Under the pieces are notes generated by a model, which worked only from the letters and a program-made list of their open reading frames with translations, had not been told where the DNA came from and ran no database searches. Below are positions 7,981 to 50,644 of a DNA stretch of 64,000 bases, piece by piece; the first letter of the stretch is position 1; every line of letters begins with the position of its first letter. This stretch comes from an uncultured Candidatus Saccharibacteria bacterium. Its GTDB lineage: Bacteria > Patescibacteriota > Saccharimonadia > Saccharimonadales > Saccharimonadaceae. The position numbers and the translations under genes are program-made. Location of the stretch: positions 497,031-561,030 of the forward strand of contig OY970356.1 of NCBI GenBank assembly GCA_963718685.1, written 5' to 3'.

Positions 7981-8097
7981 ATTACCTACAATTATAGCGC
8001 CTATTAGAAAGTACTTTCAAAGCCCTAGCAACTTATCGTAAGTATATATATTCTTATGCTTGCAAAAACTATAATTAAAATCTAATCTTATAAACAG

Positions 8098-8610
8098 ATG
8101 AGTGAAGGTTTTTGGCTAGTCGTAGGAATTGTAGTGGGCTCTGTAACCACTTTTATAGCAAACTTAGTGGCAGATAGAATTAAAAATACCCAGGACAACA
8201 AACAAGCCAAGAAAAACCTAAGACTTATATTAAGGATAGAATTTGAAGGAACACTAAAGTATCTAGACGAGTTGAAGTCTGATTATAACAATAGTGAAAG
8301 ATTCGCACTAAAACTAATTAATACATTGATTAAAAACATAAACGCTCTTGAAAACTACAAGTCTAATTTGTACTACTTACAAGACGCTGACTTGCAAAGG
8401 AAGGTTGCATACTTAATCACATCGTTAGGTCTGTATTTTAATGAAATTAGTGGCATTGAAAGTCTTGCTGTAGACTTACAATCCAATAAAAAAACAATAA
8501 CGGCCCTTGAAGAAGATAATAAATGGTTTGAAAAGGAAAGAAGAAATAAGCACGTAGAGATTGTTGATTTTCGACGTCAGCTAGAAGACATAATTCAAGA
8601 ACTAAGTTAG
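8098..8610 (+). CDS. hypothetical protein with N-terminal TM anchor and helical body
   Basis: 170 aa. FWLVVGIVVGSVTTFIANLV followed by a charged helical region. Confidence 0.5.
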   Translation: MSEGFWLVVGIVVGSVTTFIANLVADRIKNTQDNKQAKKNLRLILRIEFEGTLKYLDELKSDYNNSERFALKLINTLIKNINALENYKSNLYYLQDADLQRKVAYLITSLGLYFNEISGIESLAVDLQSNKKTITALEEDNKWFEKERRNKHVEIVDFRRQLEDIIQELS

Positions 8611-16604: not shown

Positions 16605-16877
16605 ATGTCACATGTTAAAGCCGGCGGATCCGCCAAAAATGTCCACGATAGTCCAGGTCAGCGCCTGGGAGTTAAGCGTGCCAGCGGTCAAAAAGTTCGT
16701 GCAGGCGAAGTGCTTGTTCGCCAAGTTGGACAAACTAAATTAGCCGGCGTGGGTACTTACCTTAGCCGCAATTTCACTATTCACGCCGCTAAAGATGGCG
16801 TGGTTGGTTTTCGCCAGATTAAAAAACGCCGCTTTAGCGGCACAACTTCTCGCCGTACTCAAGTAGTTGTTGAGTAA
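16605..16877 (+). CDS. rpmA: 50S ribosomal protein L27
   Basis: KAGGSAKNVHDSPGQRLGVKR ... VLVRQVG matches the L27 core. Confidence 0.9.
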   Translation: MSHVKAGGSAKNVHDSPGQRLGVKRASGQKVRAGEVLVRQVGQTKLAGVGTYLSRNFTIHAAKDGVVGFRQIKKRRFSGTTSRRTQVVVE

Positions 16878-21688: not shown

Positions 21689-22774
21689 CTAGCCAGCAAG
21701 GTTAGCTTCTAGGTAGGAATCAATAAAGCCGTCTATCTTGCCATCCAGCACCTTTTGGGCATCGCGTTCTTCATGTTTTGTGCGAGTATCTTTGACCATA
21801 GTGTACGGATGCAAAACATAGTTGCGGATCTGTGCGCCCCACTCGGCAGACTTGCTGGGGCCTTTTAGTTTTGCCAGGTTTTCTTCGTGTTGCTCAAGCT
21901 GCAGTTGGGCTAATTTTGAGCGCAAAACTTTCAGGGCGGTTTCTTTATTTTGCAGCTGCGAGCGTTCGTTTTGAATACTAGCCGTAATGCCGGTTGGTAA
22001 ATGCGTTACGCGCACTGCACTGTCGGTAGTATTCACGCTCTGACCGCCGTGGCCACCGGCTCGAAAAACATCAATTTTCAAGTCTTTATCATCTAATTTC
22101 ACTTCTTCAGGCGTGTCGATCTGCGGCAAAACTTCAACCAACGCAAAACTGGTTTGGCGCAAGTTATCAGAGTTAAACGGACTCAAACGCACCAGGCGAT
22201 GCACGCCATGCTCGCTTTTTAATTTTCCATATGCATACGGCCCGCTTATTTCTATCGCGCTGCTTTTGATGCCGGCTTCCTCGCCCGCCGACTGTTCTAT
22301 AACTTTGGCCTGAATATCGCTGTTTTCAGCCCAGCGCAGATACATTCTCTCTAACATCTGCGTAAAATCGGCAGCATCGGTGCCACCTACTCCAGCGCTT
22401 AAACGAATAATCGCATCGTGATCGTCGTAACGACCATTAAATTGCAGTTGTTTTTTTAAGCTCTCAAATTCCGATTCCAGAGTTTGTAGCTGAGGCTCAA
22501 CTTCAGTCTTCAAACTCTCGTCGCCCAGTTCAATCAGCTCGATTAAATCTTTTAGCTGGGTGCGTAGCTTTTGCCATGGTTCCACAGCACTCTTTAGGCT
22601 GGCTAGCTTTTTGCTCTTAGTTTGCGCGGCGCCTGAATCACTCCAAGCATCAGGCTTGGCCAGTTCAGTCTCTAGCTTGTTTTGTTGAGCTAGCTTTTCA
22701 TCAATATCAAGCTGCTTAGCCGCAGCCTCCACTTCATCAGCCAGCTTTTTAATTTGTTTTAATAACGATTGCAT
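21689..22774 (-). CDS. prfB: peptide chain release factor 2, uninterrupted (no programmed frameshift)
   Basis: SPF motif (LSPFNSDNLRQT), GGQ ([16 protein letters not shown]). The start MQSLLKQ at 22774 is preferred. Confidence 0.9.
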   Translation of the reverse strand: MQSLLKQIKKLADEVEAAAKQLDIDEKLAQQNKLETELAKPDAWSDSGAAQTKSKKLASLKSAVEPWQKLRTQLKDLIELIELGDESLKTEVEPQLQTLESEFESLKKQLQFNGRYDDHDAIIRLSAGVGGTDAADFTQMLERMYLRWAENSDIQAKVIEQSAGEEAGIKSSAIEISGPYAYGKLKSEHGVHRLVRLSPFNSDNLRQTSFALVEVLPQIDTPEEVKLDDKDLKIDVFRAGGHGGQSVNTTDSAVRVTHLPTGITASIQNERSQLQNKETALKVLRSKLAQLQLEQHEENLAKLKGPSKSAEWGAQIRNYVLHPYTMVKDTRTKHEERDAQKVLDGKIDGFIDSYLEANLAG

Positions 22775-22781
22775 GTAGTTT

Positions 22782-22787
22782 ATTGTA
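22782..22787 (-). promoter_or_regulatory. -10 box (TACAAT) 7 nt upstream of the prfB ATG
   Basis: Minus strand reads TACAATAAACTACATG, no SD. Confidence 0.35.
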
Positions 22788-22834
22788 GCGCGAAATAAAG
22801 TAAACAAACAGATATGAAACTCAATCTAGGAAAG

Positions 22835-39296: not shown

Positions 39297-39300
39297 AAAC

Positions 39301-39328
39301 CGCCCCAGTGTTTAAAAGCACTGGGGCG
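39301..39328. terminator. bidirectional hairpin between the convergent gam-like gene and hsdR
   Basis: CGCCCCAGTG-TTTAAAAG-CACTGGGGCG, perfect 10-bp stem. Confidence 0.7.
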
Positions 39329-39335
39329 AATCTAA

Positions 39336-42300
39336 TTATGCTTGCTTTTTACTCCACTCTTCACCAAACAAACTAGCTTGTTCAAGCACTAAATCTGTAG
39401 CTACTTTCTCTTCATCTGGTGGATATCCATATTCGCGCAAAGCTCGCTTAACTTCTCGTCGTAACAATGCCTGCGCACTTGAGCGAAGCGTCCAATCAAC
39501 ACTAAGGTTTTTTCTAATTCTTTCAACTAAAATTCTAGCTAGATTTCTCAATTTTTCATCACCCATAACTTTACGTGCACTGCCATTCTGGACTAAGGCA
39601 TCGTAAAAAGCTATCTCATCCGATGACAGCCCTAGACTTTCAGCTTCCTTGTCCGAGTCTCGCATGTTTTTAGCAATTTTTATCAACTCTTCAATAACCT
39701 GCGCCGCTTCAATTGTATTGTTCTTATACTTCAACAAGGCTTTCTCGAGCATATCAGCAAAAGAGCGGGCCTTTACAGCATTTGTGTTAAATTTAGCCTT
39801 AATTTCATCGTTAAGAAGTTTTTGCAAGGCTTCTACGGCAAGATTCTTGTGTTCCATATTACGAACTTCAGCTAAAAACTCATCCGACAATATTGAAATG
39901 TTGGGCTTTTCAATCCCAGCAGCTTCAAAAATATCAACCACACCGGCAGGTGCTATTGCCTTATCTACAATTTGCCTAATCGCCAAGCCATAATCTTCAT
40001 CGGTTTTTCCTTTTTCTACCAGCTTAGCTAAACGTGCTTTTACGGCCTGAAAGAAAGCTAATTCTTCGCGTATTGCCAATGCGTCAGGATGAGGCACAGA
40101 CAAAGCAAAAGCCTTAGAAAGTTCCAGCACATGCTGCTTTAAACGCTCTTCGCCTTCTTCTTGTTTCAAGATAAGTTCTTGAGCATTTAAGATTATCTGT
40201 AGCTGCTCCGATGTCCCAGCTTTAAAGTATTTTTTATAGTCAAACCCGTGAAACAGGTCGCATACAATTTCATATTTTTGTTTCATCATAGCAACTGCTT
40301 CTTCTTGATCAAGAGCTGGCTTGCCCTTACCACCACTAAGTGTGTAATCGCTCAGCGCATTGCGTAACGCGCCAGCAATTCCTAAATAATCAACAACTAA
40401 GCTGCCTGGCTTATCTTTATAAACGCGGTTAATTCTAGCTATTGCCTGCATTAAGTTATGGCCTTTTATAGGTTTATCTAGGTACATCGTGTGTAAGCTA
40501 GGTACATCAAAACCTGTTAGCCACATATCACAAACAATCACTAATTTAAGAGGCGAGTCAGCTTTTTTCATATGTTCAGCCAGCTCTTTTCGTCTCTGCT
40601 TGTTACGAATATGTTCTTGCCAAGCCAGCTCGTCTGTAGCCGAACCAGACATGACTACTTTTAAAAATCCCTGTTTATCGTCTTTGCTATACCATTCCGG
40701 GCGGATTTCTACCAATGCATCGTGTAGCTCTACTGCAATTCGTCGGCTCATAGTTACAATCATGCCTTTTCCGTCCATCACACTCAGGCGGTTTTCAAAA
40801 TGCTCAACGATATCTTGGGCAATGCGTTTTATACGTTTTTCATTTCCGACTATAGCTTCCGCTTGCGCCCACTTGCCTTTTAGCTCTTCTTTTCGGGTCA
40901 ACTCTTCACCTTTAGTCAGCTCGTCAAAATCTTTATCAATCGTCTTTCGCATCTCTTCGTTAATATCAAGATCAATCAAACGCGACTCATAAAAAATCGG
41001 CACCGTAGATTTATCTTCTACTGCCTGCTCAATATCGTAAATATCTATATAATCACCAAAAACTGCTGGAGTGTTTTTATCTTCCGCTTCAATTGGCGTT
41101 CCGGTAAAGCCAATGAAGTTTGCATTAGGCAGCGCATCGCGAATGTGTTTAGCAAAGCCATCCATAAAGTTATATTGGCTACGGTGCGCTTCATCGGCCA
41201 TAACTATGACGTTGTTGCGATCACTTAGTAAAGGAAAGCTTTTGCCATCTTCTGGAAAGAATTTAGCGTTAGTCGTAAATATCACTCCACCAGATTTTAC
41301 TTTTAATAGCTCTTTTAAGTTTTCGCGACTCTCGGCTTGCTTTGGAGCCTGTCTTAGTAATTCTTTACAGCCGCTGAAAGTTCCAAACAGTTGGTCGTCT
41401 AAGTCATTCCTGTCTGTTATCACCACAATCGTTGGGTTATTAAACTGCTTCTTTTCGTCAAGCACTAATTTTCCAGCTAAGAATGCCATGCTAAGTGACT
41501 TGCCCGACCCTTGCGTATGCCAAACCACACCGATTTTATGGTCACCGTTCATAGCGTTAGTGGTAGCCGCCAAAGCCTTATTAACTGCCCAATATTGATG
41601 ATAACCAGCCAGTTTCTTTACTAATGCCTCGTCACTTTCGCCTTCTCGCTCAAAGACCACATAATTGCGCACAATATCTAACAATCTGGCCCTATCGCAC
41701 ATTCCCCGCAGCAGCACCTCCATCATTGGCACGCCAGAATGTTCTTTATCTCCATTTACAGTTTTCCAGGCATTAAACCTCTCATAATCCGCAGTTATTG
41801 TGCCGGCTTCGGCTTCTATTCCATCAGTTATTACCAGCAATTCATTAAAACGAAATAGCGTTGGCACTTCATCCATATATGTTTGCAGTTGGTTATAGGC
41901 TTTTTTAATTGTGGCCTTTTCGTCGCTTGGGTCTTTTATCTCAATCACACCTAGCGGCAAGCCATTTACAAAAAGTACAATATCCGGCCGGCGGTTATTT
42001 TCGCCCTGTATTACAGTTAGCTGATTAACGGCTATAAATTTATTGTTATACAGATTATCTTCATCAAATAGCTTAACTTTTTTGGTGCGTATTTCACCGT
42101 CTTTTGCACGATATTCTATATCTACACCGTTAACTAAAAGTTTGTGAAATTCGTGGTTATCAAGCAGCAAGTTTGGGGCGCTACTTTGCTTTATCTTTTT
42201 TACTGCTTCTTCTAGCTCTTCCGAGGAAAGTTCGTTGATTTTTGTAAGCGCAGAACGTAGCTTACTTTCTAAAATTACATCGCTATATTGCCGTCTAGTA

Positions 42301-42398
42301 TCCTCGCCATCAGGTCCAATATCTGGGCCATGCAAAACTTCCCACCTTAAATCAGCTAATATTTTTAGTGCTTCTTGCTCTACTTTATCCTCGGTCAT
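39336..42398 (-). CDS. hsdR: Type I restriction enzyme R subunit
   Basis: Nuclease core [20 protein letters not shown], helicase motifs [16 protein letters not shown] and TGTPI, 1020 aa. Confidence 0.95.
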
Positions 42399-43438
42399 TG
42401 CGCTAGCCTCATTCTAGCAGCAGTTCTTCTAATTTTTGCAATTCTAGGATCTTTGGTATCAGTATTAAATTCTCCCGCATTTTTCTTATCTAATAAAAAA
42501 TCCAGGGCCTTCTGATTATATTTTCTAAGTTCACTGTTTTTATAGGGTTTAAAAATATGCATATATTCATCTTTCTGCAATCCATAATAAATTGCTAAGG
42601 ACCTACCATTATTTGCCTTAGACGAGGAGTTTCCTTTAAATCCAAGCTTCTCCGCTAGTAGGGCGGCATTGTATTTAAATTCAATTTCCGGATCGATTTT
42701 CCTTTCTATAATTGTACCAGCGCCTGTTATATCTCCGATGATCCTTAAAGTTGGCGATCCGTCTTTTTCTTCAAATTGTCCTTCTTTTATGAATTTTATT
42801 TTTTTCAATAGTTCTTCATCTATCACAACGCGCCCACTATTTCCCGATAACTCTCCAGTATTAACATTTAAAACCGCTGCATTTTCAACTCCAACCTTTG
42901 CCATTCTTTCAAGTTGGGCCAGCCAAAGCTGTTTCTCTTTTTCACGTTTATCATCAATCATTTTTAATAACTGAGAAGAATTAATGCGTTCTGACCTTGC
43001 ATTATTCCTGAAATAAATATCACCATCTTTAAGGCTTTGTCCGCTTTTTGTACAAACTATAGGTTTTTGGTCATGCTCATAAATGTAAATCCATCCGATC
43101 TTTGTTCTCTTATTTAATTCTAAGATTTCCATTTCAAACAAGGGAATGCTGGAAAAGTAAGATTTTAATGATTCTGATATTATTTCTGGTGTAATCTTAG
43201 AGAAATTATTGGAACTTAATCCTATTATTTTATGAGGGCTATCTTGAACACCAAAAATTAATAAACCACCTTGGTTATTGGCAAACGCAACCATGGCTTT
43301 CATATAAGTTTCTTTATAATCGCCCCAGATGAAGCTCTGTTTAAAATCAAGCTTACTTGATTCTCTAGCTATAACGTGTCCTCTTTTATTAGTTTTGAGC
43401 CTAGTTTTAACGAAGTCTCTAATTGCTTCTAAATTCAT
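42395..43438 (-). CDS. Schlafen/AlbA_2-like domain protein embedded in the R-M operon
   Basis: [10 protein letters not shown] ... [18 protein letters not shown] ... [12 protein letters not shown] matches the AlbA_2 signature by eye. ~180-aa C-terminal region unassigned. ATGA overlap with hsdR. Confidence 0.65.
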
Positions 43439-44274
43439 TACTCATTCCTCAGTAACTGAAAAAGCATTATTGTGTAATGCAAGACAAACCCGGCTTCTTC
43501 ATGAGTGGGTGCTCGACCTGTACCAGTCTGGTGGTTTCCTCGTATTTTTGAAAAGTCTTTCATGATTTCAAGAAATTTGTCATTGTCATATAAAGTATCA
43601 GCCGGTAATGGATAGTCCTCAGGATTTGTTCGCATCTTTTGCAACAAAGTTCCGAGTTGGGTTCTGGTTTCATTTGGAAAATATTTATCCCTCAATAGAC
43701 CAGCCAGAGCATCCGTGCAGCGAGTCACTGTTTTCTCATCGTCAGGTTCCATACCGTAGTGAGACTCCCAAGCTTCCGCCACCAAGTCGTTTGCATTCAT
43801 TATTTCTTCTACCTGTTTTTTAACAATTGGAACAACTCTGTATATTAACTTCATTTTGGTTTGTTTCCATTTTACTGCTCTATCCTCTGTTACCACATTC
43901 ACCTTTTTAATTTCAACTTTATAAGCAGAGCTGGCTTCGCTTAGTATTTGTTCGAGCCTCTTACCTTCTTCTTCATCAGCGATTTTTTGTAATATATAAG
44001 ATAAAACATTACGAGACACTTTATTGCTAGAAAATATAGTGTCAAAAAAATCGGTCTCATTAGGAGGCAAAGAGCTTCTCAATTGCCTACTTAGCGGCAA
44101 AAGAAAAGTGTCAAAAAAATATCCTCTTCCTATCACACCTTGGGCCATGTCATGTTTCTTCAGGACATTGAAAATCCAGTTCTTAACACTTGGCAGGAGA
44201 TAGTTAGTAAAATCCTCAGTCAGTACAGACTTGTCAAACTCATATTCTTTGTCAAAAGGCTCGAAGTTGGTCAT
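43438..44274 (-). CDS. hypothetical helical protein, Abi_C/AbiJ-like layout (tentative)
   Basis: 278 aa. C-terminal TRCTDALAGLL...LGTLLQKM...FSKIRGNHQTGTGRAP...AGFVLHYTIMLFQLL resembles the Abi_C layout but lacks a clean Rx4-6H. Coupled at both ends. Confidence 0.4.
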   Translation of the reverse strand: MTNFEPFDKEYEFDKSVLTEDFTNYLLPSVKNWIFNVLKKHDMAQGVIGRGYFFDTFLLPLSRQLRSSLPPNETDFFDTIFSSNKVSRNVLSYILQKIADEEEGKRLEQILSEASSAYKVEIKKVNVVTEDRAVKWKQTKMKLIYRVVPIVKKQVEEIMNANDLVAEAWESHYGMEPDDEKTVTRCTDALAGLLRDKYFPNETRTQLGTLLQKMRTNPEDYPLPADTLYDNDKFLEIMKDFSKIRGNHQTGTGRAPTHEEAGFVLHYTIMLFQLLRNE

Positions 44275-45413
44275 ACTTTTATCTTTCCAGAGATTAGGCG
44301 TGGCAGTAGTGAATCTCGCAATTTAATCAAAGTTTGAATTTCCTGGTCATTATTGTGCATATGTACTCTTAGGGGCTTTACTTCATCGCCAAAATTATTA
44401 ATTTTGCTAGTCGGTGGTAACTTAACGCCAAGTTCTTCAACAGCAGTTCTGCTTAACTCCGTTTGCCCCGTTGTGCCGCTTCCCATGTCTTCAAATACCG
44501 GTTCTAGGTAGCGCATCATTTCGCCAAAGAAATATTTGTTAATGGTTGGTCTTACAACCGTAACATGTGAATCGAAAGTAGTATTTTCTGGCACTTCATC
44601 AACCTGGGCCACACGCCCTAACGTTCCTACGCCTGTAGAATTAATCAAAACGTCGCCATCGATCAACAATTTTTCACTACCGAATGTTTTACTCTGTCTC
44701 CGTGCGTTAATTAGGCTTAGCCTCTTAGCCCGTATACAACGCTGGTTTACCACCAAAGTTTCGCCTCGTTCGTCGTACTTTGGAGATATGCCGCGGCTAA
44801 TATAATCTGAGATTTTCTTGAGTGTTACAGTTTCCCAGCTTTTGGCTTCGGGATTGTCTATAAAATAATACTTAAAAAGGGCTTGGCCGATTTTTTCTAA
44901 AGTCTCGTTCATTTGTCGATTCAATTCAATCTTTTCGTCAATTGACTCTAGTATTTTTACTGCATTGATCTGGTTAGATTCACCTGGCAGATCTACCTTT
45001 AGTTCCTTAATACTCTTCAAGCTGATTGTTTTTTGCGTAGAACCCGTAGTCTTAAACTTTATTTGTCTTTTTCCCTCTGGCGATACCAACCAGTAGTAAA
45101 TATATCGACTGTTAACTTTCGGTAGAATAAAAACAGTATTTTGACCTAGGCAGAAATCTTCATCAAATCGTACATAAGAGGGTATACCTTCTGTACCAAC
45201 ACGAGAAAATACAATATCACCCTGTTTGGGTTTGTGCTTTTTGGAGAATTGTTTATACACTTCATGATCCACACGGAAACAATTTGAGGTATCTAAATAT
45301 CCTGACTTGATATCCGTTACCCGAACCATTGGAAACCCAGTCTCAGCATATTTTGGAGTCTGGTGCAGACTATCGACAATTTCCGCAACATCACCAAGCA
45401 AAACCGTCTTCAT
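44271..45413 (-). CDS. hsdS: Type I R-M specificity subunit
   Basis: Two target-recognition halves separated by helical spacers, 380 aa, between hsdM and hsdR. Confidence 0.85.
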   Translation of the reverse strand: MKTVLLGDVAEIVDSLHQTPKYAETGFPMVRVTDIKSGYLDTSNCFRVDHEVYKQFSKKHKPKQGDIVFSRVGTEGIPSYVRFDEDFCLGQNTVFILPKVNSRYIYYWLVSPEGKRQIKFKTTGSTQKTISLKSIKELKVDLPGESNQINAVKILESIDEKIELNRQMNETLEKIGQALFKYYFIDNPEAKSWETVTLKKISDYISRGISPKYDERGETLVVNQRCIRAKRLSLINARRQSKTFGSEKLLIDGDVLINSTGVGTLGRVAQVDEVPENTTFDSHVTVVRPTINKYFFGEMMRYLEPVFEDMGSGTTGQTELSRTAVEELGVKLPPTSKINNFGDEVKPLRVHMHNNDQEIQTLIKLRDSLLPRLISGKIKV

Positions 45414-45955
45414 TTTTTCTTATCCTTGCTTTGAGCACTATTGGGTTGACGTGATGATTTTGCACCCATAAGAAGTCCGAATTCTTTTGGTTTTATCGTT
45501 GTATCGTAATCATTAATTAAAGGTCGCATAAGTCTTATTGCTCCACTTCCTAGCCTACGATTTGATAGGCCAATATCTTTCCTCATTGCCCTGAACACAT
45601 TAGTCATAAGAACCATCGTGTGAAAACCGTCGCTGTTGCCCTTGTATGAGTTCTGTAGCATATCGGCATATGCGTTTATTACCTTCGGGGACGAATACAG
45701 AACTGCTTTCCGATGAAAATCTTTCATTTTTTTAACTATTTCTTTTTGCTGATTGGGCGTAACCTCGGTTTCTTGCTCTTGCAGATCGCTGAGGAACTTC
45801 AAAATAAAGTTTACATACTCTTGGTACATTTCGCGCTTAATTTGTGCGTTTTCTGAACTAAACTGAGCTTTTTTATCCAGAAAATACTTAATAAGATAAC
45901 CGATTGCGCCGCTAGATATAATCCCTATTAGGGTCAGCCAATTTTCTGTAGTCAT
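45410..45955 (-). CDS. single-pass membrane protein of unknown function embedded in the R-M operon
   Basis: WLTLIGIISSGAIGYLIKYF TM, then a helical domain and a basic tail. ATGA overlaps at both ends. Confidence 0.6.
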   Translation of the reverse strand: MTTENWLTLIGIISSGAIGYLIKYFLDKKAQFSSENAQIKREMYQEYVNFILKFLSDLQEQETEVTPNQQKEIVKKMKDFHRKAVLYSSPKVINAYADMLQNSYKGNSDGFHTMVLMTNVFRAMRKDIGLSNRRLGSGAIRLMRPLINDYDTTIKPKEFGLLMGAKSSRQPNSAQSKDKKK

Positions 45956-46437
45956 TTTTTTTGTTCCTTTGTTGGGAATTGGTTGAAATATGGTCCCCGT
46001 AAATCTGCGGCTCGTTCTAGCTCTGCATTTATTTTTATTTGCAATTCAGCATGTTTTTTAGCTTGCTCTTCAACGTCAAAAAAATCACCGGAGTATAAGA
46101 TACCCTTATCCGCTATATGTGTGCCGTGTGCAAAAATGTTGCGGATTTTAAGCCAATTACTGAACAGTGTTCTATTGAGCTTACCGCTATTCCCATGCAT
46201 TCGTTCGTATATTTTTGCTAAAATATTGATTTTTGTATCCAACGAGATTCCCCTATCATTCATTACGTCAAACATGAACGCCAAATATGTGGCTTGATAA
46301 TTTGCCTTTGGACATCGAGTATAGAACTCGGTTATGTAAGCGTTTATCATGCTCTCTATAGATGTCGCCTGAGCGATCACTCTTCCTATTAGTCCTAGCT
46401 CTAGAGTAAGCTTGTCTGTACAATTATCAGAACTCAT
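45952..46437 (-). CDS. small HEPN-domain protein (predicted RNase) embedded in the R-M operon
   Basis: 161 aa, all-helical. CGC AAC ATT TTT GCA CAC = RNIFAH (Rx4H) at 46126-46143, followed by G. Confidence 0.6.
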
Positions 46438-47920
46438 AACCGATCTTCTTTAAATTATCTTTAATTTGCTTTTCTAATTTGTCAGATTCTGCGAATTGTC
46501 CTTTTAACTCAGTTGTTAACTTTTGCATCTTTTCTTCAAACGCTTCGTCGTCTTCTTCTATTTCTTCAGCACCAACATAACGTCCAGGAATCAAGACATA
46601 ATCATGTTCTTTGATCTCGTCCAGGGTTGTTTCTTTGCAGAAACCGGCAACGTCTTCGTACTTATTATTCTGCTGCTTCCATTCGTGATAAATGCCGGCT
46701 ATTTTGGCAATGTCACCGTCGTTAAACTCACGATTACGCCGATTAACCATATGCCCTGTATTGCGCGCGTCTATAAATAAGGTTTTGCCACTGCGGTTTT
46801 TACGGTCGCGCGAAATAAACCACAGACACGCTGGGATTCCAGTGTTAAAGAATAGCTGGCTTGGCATGGTAACAATACAATCAACTAAATCTGCCTCTAT
46901 AATACTTTTACGAATCTCGCCCTCGCCGGAACTTTGCGAACTCATAGAGCCATTTGCCAAGACAAAGCCAGCCGTACCTGTTGGGCTAAGATGATGTATA
47001 AAATGCTGAACCCAAGCAAAGTTAGCATTGCCTTTTGGCGGAGTGCCAAACTTCCATCGCACATCATTTGCCAAAAGCTCACCGCTCCAGTCGCTGTCGT
47101 TAAATGGCGGATTGGCTAATACGAAGTCGGCTTTGAGGTCTTTTAGCTGGTCGTTATGGAGCGTGTCGCCATATTTGATATCTGCGTCTATGCCACGAAG
47201 GGCCATGTTCATGACAGCTAGCTTCCAGGTGGTTTGGTTACTTTCCTGACCGTAAATTGCAATATCCCCTAGTCGGCCGGAATGCTCTTCTATAAATTTT
47301 TCACTTTGAACGAACATTCCCCCACTGCCACAGCATGGGTCATAAATCCGGCCTTTATATGGCTCTAGCATCTCGACAAGCAAGCGAACGATGCTGCGTG
47401 GAGTATAGAACTGCCCGCCACGCTTGCCTTCTGCATCGGCAAACATGCCGATGAAGTATTCATAAATCCGGCCTAGTAAATCTTTTTCTTTATGGCCGCT
47501 GCCATTTAGCTGTATATTACTGAAAATATCAATTAGCTCACCTAAGCGGCGTTTATCTAGAGCTTCCCGCCCATAGTTTTTTGGCAAGACTCCTTTAAGC
47601 TTCGGGTTTTCTCGCTCAATGGCGTCCATGGCATCATCAATAATTGTGCCGATTTCTGGCTGCTTGGCGTTATCGCGCAAGTACCACCAGCGAGCTTCTT
47701 TAGGAACCCAAAATATATTTTCTGAAGCATATTCGTCTTTGTCTTCAGGGTCAACATATTCTTGGCTTTTAAGTTCTGCATATTTTTCTTCAAAGGCGTC
47801 AGATATGTATTTGAGGAAAATTAATCCAAGTACTACATGCTTATACTCTGCAGCGTCCATATTATTTCGCAGCTTATCAGCAGATTGCCAGAGTTTTTGC
47901 TGTATTTCTTGAATATCCAA
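46427..47920 (-). CDS. hsdM: Type I R-M N6-adenine DNA methyltransferase subunit
   Basis: Motif [12 protein letters not shown], motif IV LANPPFN, HsdM N-terminus [36 protein letters not shown] start with AAGAGG SD 6 nt upstream. Confidence 0.95.
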
Positions 47921-47967: not shown

Positions 47968-47976
47968 ATTATAGCA
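47968..47976 (-). promoter_or_regulatory. extended -10 (TGCTATAAT) of the R-M operon, inside a small palindrome
   Basis: Minus strand TGCTATAAT. Plus-strand GTGCT-CATTAT-AGCAC at 47962-47977. Leader hairpin TTAGAGC-TTCGT-GCTCTAA at 47939-47957. Confidence 0.4.
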
Positions 47977-48018
47977 CTTTTATCTCTGTTTTTAAACTAA
48001 ATTCAAAGGATATTACTT

Positions 48019-48092: not shown

Positions 48093-48226
48093 AGATTGAC
48101 ATAAGCGTTAACGGTATGATATGCTTAAAGTACAAATGAAACTGGTTCCGAACTGTCACCGTATGGTGTGCGTGCCTAGGACAACTAGGATAGGAGCCAG
48201 TTTCGACTTTACATAGAATAATCATT

Positions 48227-48862
48227 TTACTTAAACTCCCAGACATCTTCTATTCTTTTCTTGATAATCTTTATATAGCGTTTTGAATCTGTCTTATCCT
48301 TCTGGTAGGAACGATGTATGGATCCTGCTACTAAGTCTGCGAGTTGAATCAGGTTGTTTGTGTGTGAGTCAACAAATCTGACTTTGGCAATTTTTTTCGA
48401 CCTAGAATTGATCATGCGCCTGAAGTAAGTGACGGCGCTTTTTTTATACTCTCTACCTGAATGCCCGTCTAGCCGAACATCGGCTTTGTTTAGACTATCT
48501 GTTTTTGCCAAAACTTCTTTAATTGCATAGTTGTAAAAAGAATCTTGCTTGTTTCTTAACTCTTGGCTGCGAATTACAGATTTATTTATGCAAATAGCGC
48601 GCACCCTGAAGTTCTTTGAGCCGAGTCTTTTGAGAAGTTCTGCAGTGATATCTTTTTTAGTTTTATTAAACTTAAATTCTCTATTGTCCGACCACTTTAA
48701 CTCCCTGCGATATTTTTTCATTACCAAAGCCGTTTCTTCGGCGTCGAGATTGTCGTCAAAAATTACGCAAGCTATTACAAAGTGACTGCTAGAACCCTTA
48801 CCTAGCTTAAAACCTGGATCGCCAGAGTCATCTATAAAAACTAGTTGTTTTGTTTTCGCCAT
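48227..48862 (-). CDS. DUF3800-family protein
   Basis: N-terminal LVFIDDSGDPGF plus HFVIACVIF typical of DUF3800, 211 aa. Confidence 0.65.
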   Translation of the reverse strand: MAKTKQLVFIDDSGDPGFKLGKGSSSHFVIACVIFDDNLDAEETALVMKKYRRELKWSDNREFKFNKTKKDITAELLKRLGSKNFRVRAICINKSVIRSQELRNKQDSFYNYAIKEVLAKTDSLNKADVRLDGHSGREYKKSAVTYFRRMINSRSKKIAKVRFVDSHTNNLIQLADLVAGSIHRSYQKDKTDSKRYIKIIKKRIEDVWEFK

Positions 48863-49435: not shown

Positions 49436-50584
49436 TTAACTTTCTTCCTCACTAAATAGTTCAACGTAATCACGATAAATGTATTTTTGACCGTATGTAT
49501 CAGTGTCTTTAGTAGGAAAAAGTATTCCCATACCTTTGAGTCTTTCGATAACCCTATAAGCACCTGGGCGAGTATAGCCTGTCCATTTCACAATATCAGC
49601 AATACCTACCGTTGGTAAGCGATAAAGATTGCGAAGAACCTCAAGTGTTGTGGGGGCTGAAGCTCGACCGAGTTTTTGGACTTTACGCATATCGCGTTCG
49701 CGAACTTCGGTTATTTTCTGACATGTGACAATAGCTGACTGTGCTGTTTCTATAATCCCATCCATAAAGAAATCGAGCCATTCGCTGATACGCCCTTCTT
49801 CTGAATGATAGCCATTAAGTCTATCGTAGTAGGTGTCTTGATGTTTTTTAAAATATGACGACAAATAAAGCACCGGCATTTCTAATAGTTTTTCATGCCA
49901 CAGAAACATAGTAACCAATATGCGTCCAGTGCGGCCATTGCCGTCAGCAAATGGATGGATTGTTTCAAATTGAGCATGTAAAAGACCAGCCTTTATAAGT
50001 GGCAGGTAGTCATCATCGGCATGAATAAACTTTTCAAGATTACTAAGAGCGTCTTTCATATCGTGAACCGGAGGCGGCACAAACCTAGCATTGTCGGGAC
50101 GTGTACCACCAATCCAATTTTGGCTAGTACGAAACTCGCCTGGAAATGGGTTGTGTGTAGTACGAGCGCCTGTCATTAGTTTTTGATGTAGTTCTCGTAT
50201 AAAACGAAGTGAAAATGGAAATTCTTTTGCTCGCTTAAGTCCATAATTCAATGCATCAATGTAATGTAAAATGTCATCAACATCAGCTGGAAGATCTGTG
50301 CTACGTTCAACATTTACCGCCTCAATAGCATCCATCATCGTTGCCTTTGTCCCTTCAATCTGGCTTGACGACGATGCATCTTTGCGGACAAACATTTCAA
50401 GAAAATAATCCTTATCTGGCAAAAGTTCAGTTATACCGTCTAGTTTTCCGATAAGCCGCACTGCTTCAGTATGTTTTTGCGACAAGGAACGATTAGTCAC
50501 AATTCCCTCAACTGGTGGAAACACACTAGGAACAAAGGCCTTAAAGCCTGTAGGTTGTTGAATATATTTTCCTATAATACTCAT
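49436..50584 (-). CDS. Fic-family protein (class II, N-terminal inhibitory helix) with C-terminal wHTH
   Basis: Fic motif HPFADGNGRTGR, inhibitory motif SSQIEG ((S/T)xxxE(G/N)). The ATG at 50584 (MSIIGKY) is preferred over the track start. Confidence 0.85.
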   Translation of the reverse strand: MSIIGKYIQQPTGFKAFVPSVFPPVEGIVTNRSLSQKHTEAVRLIGKLDGITELLPDKDYFLEMFVRKDASSSSQIEGTKATMMDAIEAVNVERSTDLPADVDDILHYIDALNYGLKRAKEFPFSLRFIRELHQKLMTGARTTHNPFPGEFRTSQNWIGGTRPDNARFVPPPVHDMKDALSNLEKFIHADDDYLPLIKAGLLHAQFETIHPFADGNGRTGRILVTMFLWHEKLLEMPVLYLSSYFKKHQDTYYDRLNGYHSEEGRISEWLDFFMDGIIETAQSAIVTCQKITEVRERDMRKVQKLGRASAPTTLEVLRNLYRLPTVGIADIVKWTGYTRPGAYRVIERLKGMGILFPTKDTDTYGQKYIYRDYVELFSEEES

Positions 50585-50591
50585 AGCAATT

Positions 50592-50620
50592 TGTTTACAT
50601 CTTTGGTTCCAATGTAAACA
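50592..50620. repeat. perfect 9-bp inverted repeat in the Fic leader
   Basis: TGTTTACAT (50592-50600) and ATGTAAACA (50612-50620). A third half-site ATGTAAAC lies at 50654-50661. Confidence 0.7.
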
Positions 50621-50644
50621 GAATAGCACATTTAGTTTATATCT

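Follow-up and report, generated by a model that had tools for sequence, protein, structure and literature searches.

A HEPN-like gene in a type I restriction-modification operon

The window analyzed here, a stretch of 64,000 nucleotides of contig OY970356.1 from an uncultured Candidatus Saccharibacteria bacterium, contains a type I restriction-modification (R-M) operon on its minus strand. Its seven co-oriented genes are, in order, hsdM, a HEPN-like gene, a gene for a protein of 181 amino acids (aa), hsdS, a 278-aa gene, a 347-aa Schlafen/AlbA_2 gene, and hsdR (Table 1). The second gene is the subject of this study. Residues 99–104 of its 161-aa product read RNIFAH, encoded by CGCAACATTTTTGCACAC and followed by G105; this is an instance of the Rx4-6H motif of HEPN domains, in which R is typically followed by a polar residue (N, D, or H) (PMC3710099). 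The first 11 bp of the gene, from its ATG on, are also the last 11 bp of hsdM, and its TGA stop shares the tetranucleotide ATGA with the start codon of the 181-aa gene. From a promoter-like site to a terminator-like site, the genes overlap at each of their six junctions. An initial annotation, made from the letters of this stretch alone, proves exact in the coordinates and translation of the open reading frame (ORF), in the position of the motif, and in both overlaps, and the hsdM and hsdS genes that it placed on either side are confirmed by Pfam. The HEPN-like gene is an accessory gene in the sense that it is a non-hsd gene within a co-oriented, tightly packed hsdM-hsdS-hsdR array, in a slot whose content varies from locus to locus.

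The chance expectation for RNxxxH in 161 residues is 0.007, and that for any Rx4-6H is ∼0.5. Among the 19.6 thousand residues of non-overlapping ORFs in the window, RNxxxH is seen three times, compared with 0.9 expected. Because the motif recurs in the ORFs of the window and Rx4-6H is common by chance, a single occurrence of RNxxxH is not significant. Further ORFs with the motif, one of 90 aa (RNFTIH, 16605–16877, plus strand) and one of 372 aa (RNYVLH, 21689–22807, minus strand), serve only as this chance baseline. By itself the motif is weak evidence; what stands above chance, judged from the alignments, is its invariance across homologues.

Among 5.8 billion clustered proteins, 17 close homologues with identities of 45–100% were detected, and an exhaustive profile search of 1.84 billion library representatives found 39 at E ≤ 1e-3. 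A second, word-indexed search with a 38-sequence profile yielded almost no additional members. R99, N100, A103, H104, and G105 are invariant in the 17-sequence alignment. In a 52-sequence alignment, which has a mean column identity of 27% and includes many members only 20–30% identical to the window protein, the sole invariant columns are E28, K69, R99, N100, and H104, and A103 is conserved in at least 90% of the sequences. The initial annotation had made its reading depend on the R and H being kept in homologues; R99, N100, and H104 are present in 52 of 52. As far as sequence comparison goes, no feature of the family is under stronger constraint than the R-N-H motif. The gene itself is thus both real and conserved.

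All five matches among species-representative genomes are metagenome-assembled genomes of Candidatus Saccharibacteria, and the family appears to be restricted mainly to this lineage. The contig that holds the window is 778 kb long. When the family consensus was compared with phage and plasmid collections by tblastn, no match was obtained, and a scan of viral contigs gave no relative of the close family. The sole viral-collection relative found for the distant subgroup is a 307-aa ORF on an IMG/VR contig (locus L105, 7227–8150), which ends in WGSLYDIRNKVAHGKPINK (last residues IRNKVAHG) and is seemingly truncated by an adjoining transposase gene.

Table 1. Genes and sequence features of the hsd operon, with positions in the window
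Feature	Position	Strand	Evidence
HEPN-like gene, 161 aa plus stop	45952..46437	minus	ORF and translation
Codons for R99-N100-I-F-A103-H104, Rx4H motif, putative active site	46126..46143	minus	Conserved; end of predicted helix 89–104
hsdM, type I methyltransferase subunit	46427..47920	minus	Pfam N6_Mtase E=3e-114, HsdM_N E=5e-28
181-aa accessory gene, weak AbiN-like match	45410..45955	minus	PADLOC AbiN E=4e-5
hsdS, specificity subunit	44271..45413	minus	Pfam Methylase_S E=3e-22, two stretches
278-aa accessory gene, no recognizable family	43438..44274	minus	Pfam, PADLOC, NCBIfam, PHROGs: nothing significant
347-aa accessory gene, Schlafen/AlbA_2 domain	42395..43438	minus	Pfam SLFN_AlbA_2 E=1.3e-19; PADLOC PDC-S50 E=2e-12
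hsdR, restriction subunit	39336..42398	minus	62–70% identical to L001, L009, and L011 proteins annotated HSDR_N, ResIII, SWI2_SNF2, T1RH-like_C
Promoter-like site, TTTAAA-17-TATAAT with TG, upstream of hsdM	47968..47996	minus	Consensus match only
Terminator-like hairpin directly after the hsdR stop	39300..39329	minus	11-bp stem, 8 G-C pairs, T tail

The 278-aa gene is unique to the window among the loci compared. A Fic/DOC protein is encoded just upstream of the operon (49436–50629, minus strand). Between the hsdM promoter region and the 3′ end of a DUF3800 gene (48227–48862, minus strand; Pfam E=1e-17) lies a DUF3800-IX RNA motif (48139–48207, plus strand; Rfam 65.8 bits, E=4e-12), which adjoins the DUF3800 gene on the opposite strand. 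A DUF3800 gene is also found inside the hsdM-hsdS slot of a further locus, L101.

Relation to the HEPN superfamily

Thirty-eight divergent members of the family were compared with Pfam. Below the threshold, HEPN_RiboL-PSP was matched by 20 of the 38 (best E=5e-5), HEPN_Apea by six, HEPN_MAE_28990 by two, and HEPN_Cthe2314 and HEPN_Swt1 by one each; every non-HEPN family was matched by one member only. The HEPN matches span the motif-bearing C-terminal half of the profiles. With family consensus sequences as queries, the top matches were HEPN_Cthe2314 (E=3.6e-4) and HEPN_RiboL-PSP (E=4.7e-3). None of nine HEPN-matching queries still matched a HEPN profile after its sequence had been reversed, so composition does not explain the signal.

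An AlphaFold2 (AF2) model built with a deeper alignment (pLDDT 95.5, pTM 0.89) has helices at residues 3–40, 48–59, 66–84, 89–104, and 122–146 and a β-hairpin at 106–120. The initial annotation had described the protein as all-helical; the five helices agree with this, but the short hairpin does not. In this model, the motif ends helix 89–104 and begins the loop to the last helix, a placement that has been described for HEPN domains (PMC3710099). The polar residue expected after the arginine is N100, and R99-N100-x3-H104 is invariant in the 52 homologues.

Several results weigh against a HEPN assignment. The window protein itself has no match in Pfam, NCBIfam, or PADLOC, and its only match in PHROGs is phrog_21938, a family of unknown function (E=0.002). 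No member reaches the gathering score of a Pfam HEPN family, the best scores being ∼18–21 bits compared with cut-offs of 27–28; for HEPN_RiboL-PSP (PF18735, cut-off 28.4 bits), per-sequence scans gave at most 18.2 bits for the relatives and 17.3 bits for the consensus. Foldseek searches of the PDB with two models returned no significant match, and the HEPN domain of sacsin appeared only at E ∼4 with a TM-score of 0.25–0.42. Against BFVD, nothing was significant; the best hit was an unnamed viral protein (A0A4Y5TZQ9, E=0.04, TM-score 0.5). Sequence and profile searches of the PDB, with the single sequence and with two alignments (A1 and A2) as queries, found no HEPN and gave only spurious matches to ACE, an arginyltransferase, and ribosomal protein L7. 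In hhalign comparisons of the family profile with small alignments of established or candidate HEPNs (NTase_sub_bind, AbiU2, DUF4145, and cluster 8), the motif alone was aligned, with a probability of at most 3%, although these templates were too thin for the result to carry weight.

The HEPN reading of the initial annotation therefore holds in part. It is favored by the invariant motif, the position of the motif at a helix end, the recurrent sub-threshold HEPN profiles, and the presence of HEPNs in the same slot of related operons (below); the lack of a Foldseek match to the PDB and of any score above a Pfam HEPN cut-off tells against it. The HEPN fold itself is not confirmed, and the Foldseek outcome is uninformative. 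On balance, the protein probably belongs to the HEPN superfamily. By sequence it falls in none of the existing Pfam HEPN families, and it represents a small HEPN-like family that is unclassified in every protein-family library searched.

Alternatively, the protein may not be an active HEPN RNase: it could have another helical fold, or it could be a HEPN-like subunit that binds RNA or protein without catalysis and regulates or supports the operon structurally. The lack of a significant structural match to any HEPN and of an above-threshold family match speaks for this, and non-catalytic HEPN domains are known (PMC3710099). Such domains have, however, lost the Rx4-6H motif (PMC3710099), whereas in the present family no positions are more conserved than R, N, and H, and the only recurrent profile signal is that of HEPN, which disappears upon sequence reversal. 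We consider this alternative very improbable.

Operon position and neighboring genes

The HEPN-like gene was found in nine distinct loci, in eight of which (the window and seven others) it occupies the hsdM-hsdS interval of an orthologous type I operon. Relative to the window proteins, HsdM is 69–80% and HsdR is 62–70% identical in these loci. Zero to three genes separate hsdM from the HEPN-like gene, zero to two separate the latter from hsdS, and one to three stand between hsdS and hsdR. The accessory cargo differs in every locus: L009 encodes a KAP NTPase and an AAA_15 ATPase, L013 combines Fic and AbiU2 with a 420-aa and an SMC-like protein, L011 has AbiU2 and a 171-aa protein along with two unknown genes, and L001/L015 encodes a PIN_12-like protein. 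Conservation of the sequence at the hsdM-HEPN junction across loci was considered and rejected.

Fic homologues stand between hsdM and the HEPN-like gene inside the operons of L013, L017, and L018. Some operons hold two or three different Rx4H proteins (L013, 8524–9786; L018, 7570–8856; L011, 6529–7203). Those of L013 and L018 form a 420/428-aa family with RNDAAH or RNKAAH and a weak RiboL-PSP-HEPN match, and that of L011 is a 224-aa protein with RNDVMH. The AbiU2 HEPN is located 3′ of hsdS in L011 and before hsdS in L013.

Outside any R-M locus, the L003/L019 clade follows a gene for a TPMT-like small-molecule methyltransferase, whose end the start of the HEPN-like gene (8001–8492) overlaps by 11 bp; a two-component system lies upstream. 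Within the close family, no other clade is as divergent (∼45% identity). A distant member, P0047 (locus L100), is also encoded outside R-M loci, paired with a 365-aa TPR-like protein and near HipA-like and AAA_14 genes.

The comparison also covered 80 metagenomic loci with close HsdM relatives (L020–L099, 63–83% identity). The HEPN-like family is absent from all 80, including L020, which has the closest HsdM relative (83%); the gene is clearly dispensable for this HsdM lineage. hsdS could be located in 49 of these loci. In 23 of the 49, hsdM abuts hsdS, usually with an overlap of 11 or 17 bp, and in the other 26 the junction holds an insert of 0.4–5.3 kb of varied cargo. The HEPN-like gene of the window reuses the recurrent 11-bp overlap with hsdM. 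Among the inserts are bona fide HEPNs (NTase_sub_bind, E=5e-35, once with an MNT partner; DUF4145, E=6e-12), further ORFs with the RNxxxH motif, and, judged by reading ORF sequences that were not scanned, RhuM-like, YhcG-like, and Schlafen-type genes. The HEPN clades with known links to R-M systems number at least 16; Fic/Doc or RhuM often accompany them, and the arrangement has been read as a defence in several layers, after the example of PrrC-EcoprrI (PMC3710099). The hsdM-hsdS slot is a known type of hotspot, and a HEPN within an R-M operon is a pattern described in 2013.

The initial annotation had suggested that a minimal HEPN toxin would need a restraining partner, either the HsdM/HsdS complex or the neighboring 181-aa protein, which it took to be a transmembrane protein. 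In the first case, the protein would act as a guard resembling PrrC: an RNase silenced by contact with HsdM/HsdS (and perhaps HsdR), freed by a phage anti-restriction protein, and then cutting tRNA. The hsd genes are the sole constant neighbors in the eight operons; the HEPN-like gene shares its start with the end of hsdM in the window and overlaps hsdS with its stop in L009 and L017; across the eight loci, pairwise HEPN identity tracks HsdM identity (Mantel r=0.57, p=2.5e-4); and PrrC-EcoprrI provides a precedent (PMC3710099). The Mantel signal may reflect only shared host phylogeny and physical linkage, however, and HEPN identity does not correlate with that of HsdR or HsdS. PrrC, moreover, is regulated through an N-terminal ABC-ATPase (PMC3710099) that the 161-aa protein does not have. 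A partnership with HsdM/HsdS is compatible with the conserved gene position, but the idea is weakened because L020, like the rest of the 80 related loci, has no such gene and because the L003/L019 clade and the distant member in L100 lie outside R-M loci. We regard a PrrC-like guard as unlikely, and its sharper version, a domain-minimal PrrC analogue in which an ATPase-less HEPN RNase of 160 aa is gated by HsdM/HsdS and fires upon phage anti-restriction, as more doubtful still.

The alternative partner leads to a toxin-antitoxin (TA) or abortive infection (Abi) module of two genes, in which the HEPN-like protein would be the toxin and an adjacent small protein the antidote, namely the 181-aa protein in the window and non-homologous small membrane-anchored proteins elsewhere. 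The 181-aa gene directly adjoins the HEPN-like gene with a 4-bp overlap, and its homologues adjoin it in L015 and L017. Small proteins with one hydrophobic helix are encoded beside the gene in L011 (171 aa), L015 (130 aa), and L016 (202 and 159 aa), and the distant P0047 forms a two-gene unit with its TPR-like neighbor. Yet no partner is conserved: in L009 the gene is flanked by the KAP NTPase gene and hsdS, and in L013 and L018 its neighbors are Fic and the 420-aa protein. Homologues of the 181-aa protein occur in only three of the eight operons that carry the HEPN-like gene, downstream of it in the window but on its upstream side in L015 and L017. The window and L017 share 77% identity in the 181-aa protein but 48% in the HEPN-like protein, a discordance indicating that they do not co-evolve. 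The 181-aa family is also about three times larger than the HEPN-like family, with at least 50 proteins, and in four of four further loci (L101–L104) its gene has no HEPN-like gene within 7 kb, being placed twice just upstream of hsdS, once in a ribosomal-protein operon, and once alone. Its N-terminal helix is moderately hydrophobic, with a borderline Kyte-Doolittle maximum of 1.5. The partnership proposed in the initial annotation is not upheld by this record, and an obligate antitoxin role was rejected in view of the patchy co-occurrence, the variable order, and the larger, independent family. The 181-aa gene is an independent accessory gene, and a two-gene TA/Abi module has little chance of being the correct description. 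In Saccharibacteria-type operons, members of the 181-aa family often stand just upstream of hsdS; the copy in the ribosomal-protein operon is located between secY and infA, beside Fic and zeta-toxin genes.

An RNA antitoxin was also considered, as in AbiF-like type III TA systems: a small RNA, encoded directly upstream of the gene, would block the HEPN active site. Among Pfam families the nearest is RiboL-PSP-HEPN, which has been described as a distant relative of AbiD/AbiF (PMC3710099), and an upstream non-coding RNA neutralizes AbiF (PMC13064643). In the window, however, there is no non-coding DNA upstream of the HEPN-like gene, because its start lies inside hsdM, and the upstream gap is different in every locus. 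Tandem repeats in the operon amount to three trivial two-copy arrays, no Rfam match was found near the gene at E up to 1, and the features that would mark AbiD/AbiF are missing, with neither a Pfam Abi_2 match of the window protein nor a match to an RNA family. We find this explanation scarcely credible.

Proposed function and comparison with known systems

We propose that the protein is a helical member, of ∼160 aa, of a small, unclassified family within the HEPN superfamily. Its predicted RNase site, which would need no metal, would consist of the invariant R99-N100-x3-H104, probably with help from E28 and K69, and would most likely be completed by dimerization, by analogy with other HEPN enzymes. 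In Candidatus Saccharibacteria, the hsdM-hsdS slot of the type I operon would hold the gene as part of a set of accessory defence genes that can replace one another; there it is presumably transcribed together with the hsd genes and coupled to them in translation. As a second-line RNase of the abortive-infection type, the protein may cut tRNA or mRNA once a phage passes or damages the first line. It would act as a self-contained single-gene effector that is not paired with the 181-aa protein. A precedent for a single-protein HEPN defence effector is ApeA, which cleaves tRNA and is activated by a small ligand (bioRxiv 10.64898/2026.01.26.701840); candidate activating cues for the present protein are a phage protein or, as shown for ApeA, a small-molecule infection product. 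A small HEPN-type RNase that is an exchangeable accessory gene of type I R-M and a self-contained effector of this kind is the reading that we favor, with some reserve; it still has to explain how a constitutively expressed solo RNase is tolerated without an inhibitor.

If this proposal is right, an unclassified, lineage-restricted HEPN family is added to the RNase effectors inside R-M operons, and Saccharibacteria, whose genomes are <1 Mb, devote ∼9 kb to a type I operon with four exchangeable accessory genes. That HEPN RNases are coupled to R-M as multi-layer defence has been known since 2013; what is new is the family itself. The practical value is modest: the family would supply the seed alignment from which a new HEPN model could be built, along with a candidate abortive-infection RNase that is small and readily tested. 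Should the domain-minimal analogue of PrrC turn out to be correct, a bare HEPN domain would suffice to guard an R-M system in an ultra-small episymbiont.

Of the described families, the Ribo L-PSP-HEPN family (PF18735; Anantharaman et al., 2013) resembles the HEPN-like protein in being a small helical domain whose C-terminal half bears an R-N-x3-H motif, and it is the most frequent sub-threshold Pfam match of the new family; it differs in that the window protein has no PF18735 match and no family member reaches the cut-off. Its contexts are fusion to endoRNase L-PSP and a ParB neighbor (PMC3710099), and the HEPN-like gene has neither. HepT of the HEPN-MNT modules is a small HEPN toxin of ∼140–160 aa with an Rx4H motif, as the HEPN-like protein may also be, and one such module occupies the hsdM-hsdS slot of L089. 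The HEPN-like gene, however, has as its neighbors hsdM and the gene for the 181-aa protein, neither of which encodes an NTase domain, and neither a HepT nor an NTase_sub_bind match was found in Pfam. The motif of HepT is RX4HXY, whereas that of the HEPN-like protein is RNxxAHG.

The solo or near-solo HEPNs of R-M operons (AbiU2, ApeA, Ymh, DUF4145, and AbiJ solos, among others) share the genomic situation of the HEPN-like gene, and HEPNs of the AbiU2, NTase_sub_bind, and DUF4145 types were found in the same or neighboring slots of related operons; the HEPN-like family is nevertheless a different sequence family. Compared with ApeA, the HEPN-like protein is much smaller and has no recognizable sensor domain or ligand pocket. 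PrrC of the type Ic system EcoprrI has a large N-terminal ABC-ATPase domain, a mark of the PrrC/RloC anticodon nucleases, whereas the window protein is a single domain of 161 aa without an ATPase match, and no sequence similarity between the two proteins was detected. The HEPN-like protein has in common with PrrC an Rx4H motif of the HEPN type and a gene located within an hsdMSR operon (PMC3710099), and the two plausibly share the same logic, in which a second line of defence at the level of RNA stands behind a first line at the level of DNA (PMC3710099).

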